Of a stretch of 4,237 nucleotides of DNA, positions 1-3,000 are shown in pieces. The DNA is from a virus. Its lineage: Duplodnaviria; Heunggongvirae; Uroviricota; Caudoviricetes. Made by a program: the position numbers. Location: the IMG/VR virus record IMGVR_UViG_2778261639_000013; one strand, written 5' to 3'. Position 1 is the stretch's first letter; the number at the start of each line of letters is the position of its first letter.

Positions 1-3000
1 GAAAAACGAGTATTTTTAGTCATTCTGTTTACCTCTTTCTCAGGGAGTTTAGTCTCCAGGATTCCCGGGGCGGTTCAGACTGGAGATTTATTGCTTCGGT
101 CTTGTGTGCTTTCGGAATGGCATCAGACATAAGTCCGATTACCTTCCAACGAAACGCTCCAGAAATAAACGCAAGCCAATCCCAAAAGAATCTGACGTAA
201 AAACCTTCAACTACACGGCTCACCTGTGGGATATCCGGTGGCTAAGACATTGTGCGAGGAAAACAAGGTGATTGACCAAAATCGAAGTTACGAACAAGAA
301 AGCGTCGAGCGAGCTTTAACGTGCGCTAACTGCGGTCAGAAGCTGCATGTGCTGGAAGTTCACGTGTGTGAGCACTGCTGCGCAGAGCTGATGAGCGATT
401 CGAATAGCTCGATGCACGAGGAAGAAGATGATGGCTAAACCAGCGCGAAGACGATGTAAAAACGATGAATGTCGGGAATGGTTTCACCCTGCATTCGCTA
501 ATCAGTGGTGGTGCTCTCCAGAGTGTGGAACCAAGATAGCACTCGAACGACGAAGCAAAGAACGCGAAAAAGCGGAAAAGGCAGAAAAGGCAGCAGAGAA
601 GAAACGACGACGAGAGGAGCAGAAACAGAACGATAAACTTAAGATTCAAAAACTCGCCTTAAAGCCCCGCAGTTACTGGATTAAACAAGCCCAACAAGCC
701 GTAAACGCCTTCATCAGAGAAAGAGACCGCGACTTACCATGTATCTCGTGCGGAACGCTCACGTCTGCTCAGTGGGATGCCGGACATTACCGGACAACTG
801 CTGCGGCACCTCAACTCCGATTTGATGAACGCAATATTCACAAGCAATGCGTGGTGTGCAACCAGCACAAAAGCGGAAATCTCGTTCCGTATCGCGTCGA
901 ACTGATTAGCCGCATCGGGCAGGAAGCAGTAGAGGAAATCGAATCAAACCATAACCGCTATCGCTGGACTGTCGAAGAGTGCAGGGCCATCAAGGCGGAG
1001 TATCAACAGAAACTTAAAAAACTGCGAAACAGCAGAAGTGAGGTTGCATGAATATCTACGAAAGAATTGATGGCAGCAAATACCGAAATATTTGGGTAGT
1101 TGGCGATCTGCACGGATGCTACACGAACCTGATGAAAAAACTGGAGACGATAGGATTCGACACCAAAAAAGACCTGCTTATCTCGGTGGGCGATTTGGTT
1201 GATCTCGGTACAGAGAACGTAGAATGCCTGGAATTAATCACATTCCCCTGGTTCATAGCTGTACGTGGAAACCATGAGCAAATGATGATTGATGGCTTAT
1301 CAGAGCGTGGAAACGTCAATCACTGGCTGCTTAATGGCGGTGGCTGGTTCTTTAATCTCGATTACGACAAAGAAATTCTGGCTAAAGCTCTTGCCCATAA
1401 AGCAGATGAACTTCCGTTAATCATCGAACTGGTGAGTAAAGGAAAAAAATATGTCATCTGCCACGCCGATTATCCTTGTGATAAATACGAGTTTGGAAAG
1501 CCAGTTGATCATCAGCAGGTAATCTGGAACCGCGAACGAATCAGCAACTCACAAGACGGGATCGTGAAAGAAATCAAAGGCGCGGACACGTTCATCTTTG
1601 GTCATACGCCAGCAGTGAAACCACTCAAATTTGCCAACCAGATGTATATCGATACTGGCGCAGTGTTCTGCGGAAACCTCACATTGATTCAGGTACAGGG
1701 AGAAGGCGCATGAGACTCGAAAGCGTAGCTAAATTTCATTCGCCAAAAAGCCCGATGATGAGCGACTCACTACTGGCCACAGTTTATTGGTTTTCGTAAC
1801 TGAGTCATTTTATTATTTTATTGCAACTTTTAATCTTTTATAGTGCGAAATAAATGGAGCTGGCATTCATTTCGCACTTTATGTTTTTGTTGGACTTATG
1901 TTATTTTGATTGAATTCAATTCAGTTAAAAAAAGAAGGTGATTGCTCCATTTATAAATGAATAGTCATCCCCTGTCTTGAATTCTGATGTTACTTTATTA
2001 AATGCTAGTGTGAAGGCTACAGGTGCATACCCAATTGTTGCGCCAACTTGATATTCATCAACAGTTTTGTTTAGCGATACTGTTGTTTGTTTCGTCTGTA
2101 TTGTTTTTCCTTCGAGAGTATAGTTGCGATTGACATCTCGTCTTTCCATACCTGCAAAAATCTTGTATTTGAATCCGCTTGTATCGGACATATGCATTAA
2201 ACCACGGGGAGCCAGCAGACCAAAGCCATTATCCGAATTGAAGGTTTTATCATTACCAATGGCAATGGTTGCGCCATATGCTACATATTGAAATAAGTTT
2301 CCAGTAACAGCAGAAACTTCAGGGTATAATCCAACATTAGCACCTAAAATATCCATACTTGGTGTCATGGATAGCATCCCTTTTACAGTATAACCGTAGC
2401 GATTCTCTATTTGATCATCCCATGCATGATATTTTTCTGCCCCAATAATCTCATGAGCTTTATTTTGTACTTTCTGACCGCCTGCGTCGGGGCCAACAAC
2501 ACCTATGTCAGTACCTAATCGATAGCGAATCCAGTCATTCGCAAGGGAGTTCCATTCAATACCAGTGTGAGTGTATGCACTAAAAGCTCTGTCTCCAGTT
2601 ACAGCTGTGTTGTGTCTTTTATTACTGCCTGATGGAGAGTAAATATCTTGCGCAATATGGAGAGATAATTGGCTCGAGTCTGAGATATCGTGGCTATATC
2701 CCAGAAATAAGCCTTGTGAGTAATCATCTCTGTTTTCATGTTTATTGCCATAAATATCATTAAGTATTGGTTGAAACTTCCCTGCATCATCATTTGCTAA
2801 TGATAATGCAAGGCTGTTCGCGATAGCTGAACACGTGGTAAATGACAGAGCAATAAAGACGCCAGCGATGACACTTTTTTTCATATGTTATTGTCTTCCT
2901 TTTTTTTGAATGGTGCGCGTATTTTACATACATGAGTTTGTAATACAAGGTGCGTAATCAATATGATGTTTTATAATTGCGTGAGACAATTGATTTATTC

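Follow-up and report, generated by a model that had tools for sequence, protein, structure and literature searches.

The ninI gene in the DNA of IMG/VR virus record IMGVR_UViG_2778261639_000013 has leucine in place of the conserved arginine of motif II, at residue 53 of a lambda-type Ser/Thr phosphatase. The window, by which we mean the whole analysed stretch of 4,237 bases, is the nin-Q segment of a lambdoid prophage according to Pfam, and the RefSeq annotation of near-identical loci agrees. The CTC codon at position 53 is a genuine, heritable, low-frequency allele. Comparison of sequences and analogy with a characterized relative suggest that it is probably a young missense allele that loses an arginine of the phosphate clamp and cripples phosphomonoester hydrolysis, is tolerated in a dispensable gene, and is hitch-hiking and being shuffled by recombination.

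The ninI open reading frame (ORF) is 666 nt long and its product carries the RefSeq label 'serine/threonine protein phosphatase'. The product matched PF00149 (E=2e-16, Pfam), and its PDB match was the lambda Ser/Thr phosphatase 1G5B (E=3e-144, phmmer), with residues 1-221 on 1-221, no gap, and 207 of 221 residues identical (94%). The gene is the orthologue of lambda NinI by descent, as nin operon position and full-length homology agree. The features of the gene are listed below.

1048..1713, plus strand: ninI, lambda-type Ser/Thr (PPP-like) metallophosphatase, 221 amino acids, allele L53/I70 (RefSeq WP_024238680.1).
1102..1116, plus strand: motif I, GDLHG (Asp20, His22), intact; invariant in 103 of 103 lambda-like copies.
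1186..1209, plus strand: motif II, canonical GDxVDRG; metal-bridging Asp49 kept, Arg53 lost (from the sequence and the 1G5B alignment).
1204..1206, plus strand: codon 53, CTC for Leu, from a parental CGC (Arg) by G>T at 1205 (from 40-mer counts and a one-step parent in locus L125).
1255..1257, plus strand: codon 70, ATA for Ile, from a parental AGA (Arg) by G>T at 1256; this other private substitution lies three residues ahead of R73-GNHE.
1267..1278, plus strand: motif III, GNHE (Asn75, His76), intact; invariant in 103 of 103 lambda-like copies.
1531..1533, plus strand: Arg162, second arginine of the '2-arginine clamp', intact (clamp role, PMC8249667).
1600..1608, plus strand: GHT (His186, metal ligand), intact in the sequence.

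Bases 1186-1209 are GTG GGC GAT TTG GTT GAT CTC GGT, which translate to V47-G-D-L-V-D-L53-G54. The GDLVDLG motif with a CTC leucine codon at residue 53, which a first-pass annotation of this DNA had reported, is thus read directly in the ORF. That annotation had also placed the leucine in the column of the phosphate-binding arginine, and the alignment bears this out. L53 stands opposite R53 of 1G5B, and because the alignment is gapless the column assignment is unambiguous; a misplaced column was ruled out. The role it had given for the lambda residue is likewise documented, since in the crystal structure of the lambda phosphatase a bound sulfate is contacted by Arg53, Asn75 and His76 (PMC3675462), and Arg53 and Arg162 make up the '2-arginine clamp' of bacterial PPP enzymes (PMC8249667). 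The GDLHG, GNHE and GHT motifs were correctly described as intact, and the metal ligand His139 is also present. Judged from its sequence, the product fails one defining signature of active PPP phosphomonoesterases, the motif II arginine. Because this arginine is missing, we file ninI as an orthologue of the lambda phosphatase and do not assert an active Ser/Thr phosphatase; the RefSeq name, which is given despite the broken signature motif, should be read with caution.

Conservation of the column was assessed in 103 other full-length lambda-like ninI copies and in a wider alignment with 150 sequences, each representing a 50%-identity cluster and most of them sharing 35-60% identity with the window protein. 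Arginine occupied column 53 in all 103 lambda-like copies and in 142 of the 145 diverse representatives aligned there, so the motif II arginine is conserved as the first-pass annotation had stated. The other three rows had Lys (2) and Asn (1), and two of these three are misaligned fragments. Leucine was found in none of the 145 and none of the 103. The idea that leucine is common among homologues, which would have counted against the first-pass reading, was therefore rejected. In a substitution profile built from 135 full-length representatives, R53L was penalized by 6.6 bits, compared with 5.1 bits for H76N, 4.1 bits for D20N and 1.3 bits for R70I. Column 70 was variable across the wider family (H, F, Y, R, K, E, L). 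Among lambda-like ninI alleles the ratio of nonsynonymous to synonymous polymorphism (pN/pS) was 0.23, from which the gene is normally under purifying selection.

We counted the allele in 5,426 complete E. coli genomes, of which 1,149 hold ninI at 95% identity or more, at 1,799 places. A 40-mer centred on base 1205, whose seeds match only when T is present, was found at 10 places in nine genomes, which are exactly the nine with a gene 100% identical to that of the window. The CGC-53 40-mer of the same context was found at 1,253 places in 731 genomes. The comparison of CGC with CTC in other isolates, which the first-pass annotation had proposed as a check, thus stands at 731 to 9. In IMG/VR, all 120 sampled contigs that matched the motif with a free codon encode arginine (81 CGC, 39 CGT), and a scan limited to CHN codons gave two contigs only, whose codon is CTC and whose gene is identical to that of the window. 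CTC-53 was absent from all 73 deposited phage records that carry ninI. An exact-sequence look-up in a collection of 15 billion proteins placed the L53/I70 protein on 286 contigs and the parent allele protein on at least 1,000.

The L53 carriers came from cattle, pigs, dogs, fish and one patient. The carrier records examined were from Germany, China, South Korea and Australia, and the bovine OkiPb strains are apparently Japanese. All 10 genomic copies of the L53/I70 gene are 100% identical with the ORF intact, and positions 140-4237 of the window differ from the four carrier loci compared by 0 to 3 mismatches and 1 to 2 gaps; on these grounds the allele appears to be young. CTC and CGC differ by a single base, and nothing else speaks for a sequencing or assembly error at 1205. 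The identical gene recurs in nine independently sequenced complete genomes, two IMG/VR contigs and 286 contigs of several sources, so the codon is heritable and the error explanation, whose probability is negligible, was rejected in favour of a real variant, which the first-pass annotation had offered as one possibility. L53/I70 is already in RefSeq under a generic name (WP_024238680.1). Literature text searches aimed at Arg53 and NinI found no paper describing it, and the natural allele is apparently undescribed in the literature.

The first-pass annotation had mentioned neither the second private substitution, R70I, nor the degraded, replication-defective state of the prophage. L53 and I70 are the only unusual residues in the window gene, and both columns are Arg in 103 of 103 other copies. 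The window gene is separated from the commonest E. coli allele by two changes alone, G>T at 1205 together with G>T at 1256, and there is no synonymous difference. Both are transversions that turn arginine into a hydrophobic residue. The L53/I70 allele departs from its parent at these two sites only, so it carries no compensating change. The gene of E. coli Z1323PEC0008 has the R53/I70 haplotype and differs from the window gene only by G at 1205, which agrees with the earlier statement that the leucine codon is one base from CGC. The ATA-70 40-mer was found at 20 places in 18 genomes, all nine L53 carriers included. Because the L53 carriers are nested within the ATA-70 genomes and an R53/I70 genome exists, the sequences suggest that R70I preceded R53L.

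The L53/R70 haplotype was confined to nine short contigs from Logan/ENA, on which the downstream context is of three kinds (lpxR, a PF03589 antiterminator or lambda-type Q). Outside sites 53 and 70 this gene is nucleotide-identical to both possible parents, so recombination and recurrence are inseparable; recombination between co-resident lambdoid prophages is the simplest source, with recurrent mutation as the alternative. Two of the contigs are k111/k141 assemblies, and for those two assembly chimeras would be unlikely. All four combinations at the two sites, which lie 51 bp apart, exist in nature. E. coli F2_81 (NZ_CP043542.1, 1641916-1666581; locus L127) holds two 100%-identical L53/I70 copies in two defective prophages, one at att-lambda and the other next to yfaA; the latter prophage carries nleA and nleG, and its ninI copy is followed by an intact lambda-type Q. 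The two identical copies point to gene conversion between co-resident lambdoid prophages.

The remainder of the window carries the following features.

1..77, minus strand: left end of an IS3-family insertion sequence (IS), terminal TGAACCGCCCCGGG..., orfA start MTKNTRF; in strain 90-3040 these bases belong to an element annotated as 'IS3 family transposase'.
78..271, plus strand: cII fragment (78-141) fused to a ninE remnant (140-271), from blastn against the complete prophage of 13E0767 and the PE164 annotation.
268-438, plus strand: NinF (Pfam).
431..1051, plus strand: ninG, with a stop codon that overlaps the start of ninI (ATGA), the arrangement of the lambda nin operon (PF05766, E=5e-88; RefSeq).
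1710..1781, plus strand: remnant of lambda-type Q, the N-terminal first 24 codons, a 72-bp pseudogene (RefSeq 'antitermination protein, incomplete, missing C-terminus').
1925..2884, minus strand: lpxR-family outer-membrane lipid A (3'-O-)deacylase, a moron between ninI and Q (PF09982, E=7e-40; RefSeq).
3221-3343: ORF of the YlcG family, 40 amino acids (RefSeq).
3358..4047, plus strand: Q antiterminator of the PF06323 type, predicted functional replacement for the truncated lambda-type Q (PF06323, E=1e-91; RefSeq).

The cII-ninE region aligned by blastn to two pieces of the 13E0767 prophage that lie 2.57 kb apart. The deletion takes out O, P, ren and ninB, and because the replication genes O and P are gone the prophage of the window is replication-defective. 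The closest genomes, PE164 and F2_81, have the same deletion in a heavily eroded prophage, located at the lambda attachment site (ybhC / ybhB-bioA) with the type III effector genes nleH, cif and espJ. An IS at exactly the junction between 1-77 and cII was found in no complete genome of the 5,426. In E. coli 90-3040 (locus 3397-4008), ninG is a pseudogene with an internal stop while the adjoining ninI, with R53, is intact, which again indicates that the nin genes of these prophages decay piece by piece.

Directly after ninI there is a mosaic joint, at which an lpxR-ylcG-Q(PF06323) module took the place of the lambda Q module; in other contexts (L125, L127) the same ninI stands before an intact lambda-type Q of 624 bp. 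The lpxR-family moron is a prophage-borne lipid A modifier in many enterohaemorrhagic and enteropathogenic E. coli (EHEC/EPEC) genomes; the window is present to 80% or more in 423 genomes. The moron is preceded by a very AT-rich 470-bp region (2885-3357). A sigma-70-like promoter, TTGCAA-17-TATACT, at 4031-4059 overlaps the end of Q, and a strong intrinsic terminator (4093-4114) with a T-run lies about 35 nt downstream of it. The layout of 4031-4122 is that expected of a late promoter of the PR' type and an early terminator, which would be read through under the action of Q. An Rfam scan of the window gave a single, sub-threshold match downstream of Q, to the small RNA STnc240 (28 bits against a gathering threshold of 55).

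In the history that we favour, the commonest E. coli allele would have acquired R70I, likely first, and then R53L. Arg53 and the second arginine clamp the substrate phosphate over the two-metal centre. With R53L the metal ligands and the fold would be kept, and charge neutralization and two hydrogen bonds would be lost, so that on phosphomonoesters, for example phosphoproteins or p-nitrophenyl phosphate (pNPP), the L53 enzyme would be strongly hypomorphic or inactive. This expectation comes from the conservation of the column and from CthPnkp, the homologous phosphatase domain of Clostridium thermocellum Pnkp. Arg237 of CthPnkp corresponds to lambda Arg53, and both the Mn-dependent hydrolysis of pNPP and the 2'/3'-phosphomonoesterase activity on nucleotides require it (PMC2190708, PMC3675462). 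The CthPnkp result is carried over to NinI by analogy. The possibility of reduced or altered activity, raised in the first-pass annotation, is in keeping with this evidence. The allele would have spread by hitch-hiking with an effector-carrying prophage at att-lambda and by recombination between co-resident lambdoid prophages. R53L would be tolerated because lambda grows without ninI and the gene is kept silent while a prophage is repressed, and the prophage of the window is also replication-defective. That ninI is dispensable for lambda plaque formation is known from nin deletions and from a CRISPR interference (CRISPRi) knock-down with Q supplied in trans (PMC10695390). We infer both the loss of monoesterase activity and the selective neutrality of L53/I70, and neutral loss of function is the simplest reading for a ninI located in a degraded, replication-defective prophage.

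Several observations weigh against this reading. At 286 contigs the allele is not extremely rare, no L53 copy shows any other damage to the ORF, and within the F2_81 genome the allele sits in two different prophage contexts. It is also present at the lambda attachment site in an apparently complete prophage, that of strain 13E0767, so the mutation predates the decay of the prophage. The chromosomal flanks of two carriers differ by 0.9% and their prophage arms by 0.07%, which suggests that the prophage moved between lineages after the mutation arose; the allele would then have passed between differing hosts without being purged. Persistence, spread, an intact ORF and a complete prophage are equally compatible with a functional allele. 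The lambda R53A mutant was reportedly found to be impaired by Zhuo et al. in 1994. Our literature text searches gave no kinetics for R53A, Arg53/Arg73 or PP1 R96A.

One way in which the allele could be functional is that Arg162, Asn75, His76 and the metals bind phosphate well enough for L53 to have near-normal activity, the change being a silent polymorphism. The intact second clamp arginine, the full set of metal ligands and the spread of the allele to 286 contigs would fit this. We consider it unlikely, as the arginine is near-invariant from lambda to distant homologues and the equivalent residue is essential for monoesterase activity in CthPnkp (PMC2190708, PMC3675462). The other way is a shift in specificity, in which R53L, with or without R70I, would lose the phosphomonoesterase and keep or gain phosphodiesterase or 2',3'-cyclic phosphodiesterase activity, and the allele would be kept as useful. 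The wild-type lambda phosphatase already turns over bis-pNPP at 44 per s, compared with pNPP at 100 per s, and cleaves 2',3'-cyclic nucleotides (PMC2190708). CthPnkp Arg237 is dispensable for diesters, the R237A, R237K and R237Q mutants keeping or raising kcat while losing the monoesterase, but their Km for diesters rises 3- to 6-fold (PMC2190708). The diesterase-only MJ0936 has a natural leucine at the motif II position, and Keppetipola and Shuman proposed that enzymes could evolve to be diesterase-only by losing this arginine (PMC2190708); yet none of the 145 diverse relatives has leucine there, so the clade has no natural subfamily that took this route.

The allele is intact on its 286 contigs, in several hosts and at least two prophage contexts, but it is too young for persistence to prove selection, and no deposited phage has it. 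Both private changes are Arg-to-hydrophobic with no synonymous change, but under neutrality two changes out of two would be nonsynonymous in about half of cases. No physiological substrate of NinI is established (PMC2190708). We regard a specificity shift as rather improbable. The more specific proposal, that R53L and R70I are a natural Arg-loss route to a diesterase-biased enzyme which selection keeps in EPEC-type prophages for a phosphodiesterase or cyclic-phosphodiesterase activity of use to phage or lysogen, would be more improbable still. The tolerated, crippling allele is the reading that we prefer, and if so L53/I70 would be an instance of ordinary early prophage gene decay; a rare disabling mutation in a dispensable prophage gene will not surprise a specialist.

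The lambda phosphatase serves as a standard reagent in the laboratory and is the enzyme on which the structural picture of bacterial PPP enzymes is modelled, their prototype. We know of no established role for it in phage biology, nor of its natural substrates. The four natural haplotypes at sites 53 and 70 form a ready comparison set for the contribution of Arg53 in the native enzyme and for the arginine-clamp and diesterase-switch ideas. The same haplotypes could show whether loss of the monoesterase costs a lambdoid phage.

Like lambda NinI (orf221, 1G5B), the window protein has 221 residues, is encoded after ninG with an overlapping ATGA, and has D20, H22, D49, N75, H139 and H186 together with His76 and Arg162. 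It differs from it by Leu53 for Arg53, Ile70 for Arg70 and 12 further common polymorphisms. The loci also differ, as in the window the lambda-type Q is truncated and the lpxR-ylcG-Q(PF06323) module is found instead. E. coli PrpA and PrpB (PphA/PphB; PRK11439, PRK09968) share with the window protein the bacterial PPP-like family and the length. The comparison with them was made through NCBIfam models and gave 270 bits for the PrpA model (equivalog cut-off 326) and 232 bits for the PrpB model (equivalog cut-off 332). Because both scores are below the cut-offs, the window protein is placed in a phage clade paralogous to PrpA/PrpB.

CthPnkp resembles the window protein as a lambda-phosphatase-like binuclear metallophosphoesterase from which the equivalent arginine was removed, with the monoesterase lost and the diesterase retained (PMC2190708, PMC3675462). 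However, it is a distant homologue within a three-domain RNA-repair enzyme, and the mutants were engineered to Ala, Lys and Gln, leucine not being among them. Like the diesterase-only enzymes MJ0936, Mre11, Rv0805 and YfcE, the window protein has no arginine at the motif II position, and its Leu53 is the residue that MJ0936 has there. These enzymes belong to unrelated subfamilies and differ further in the active site, for example by Asn or Cys at the position where the window protein retains His76.

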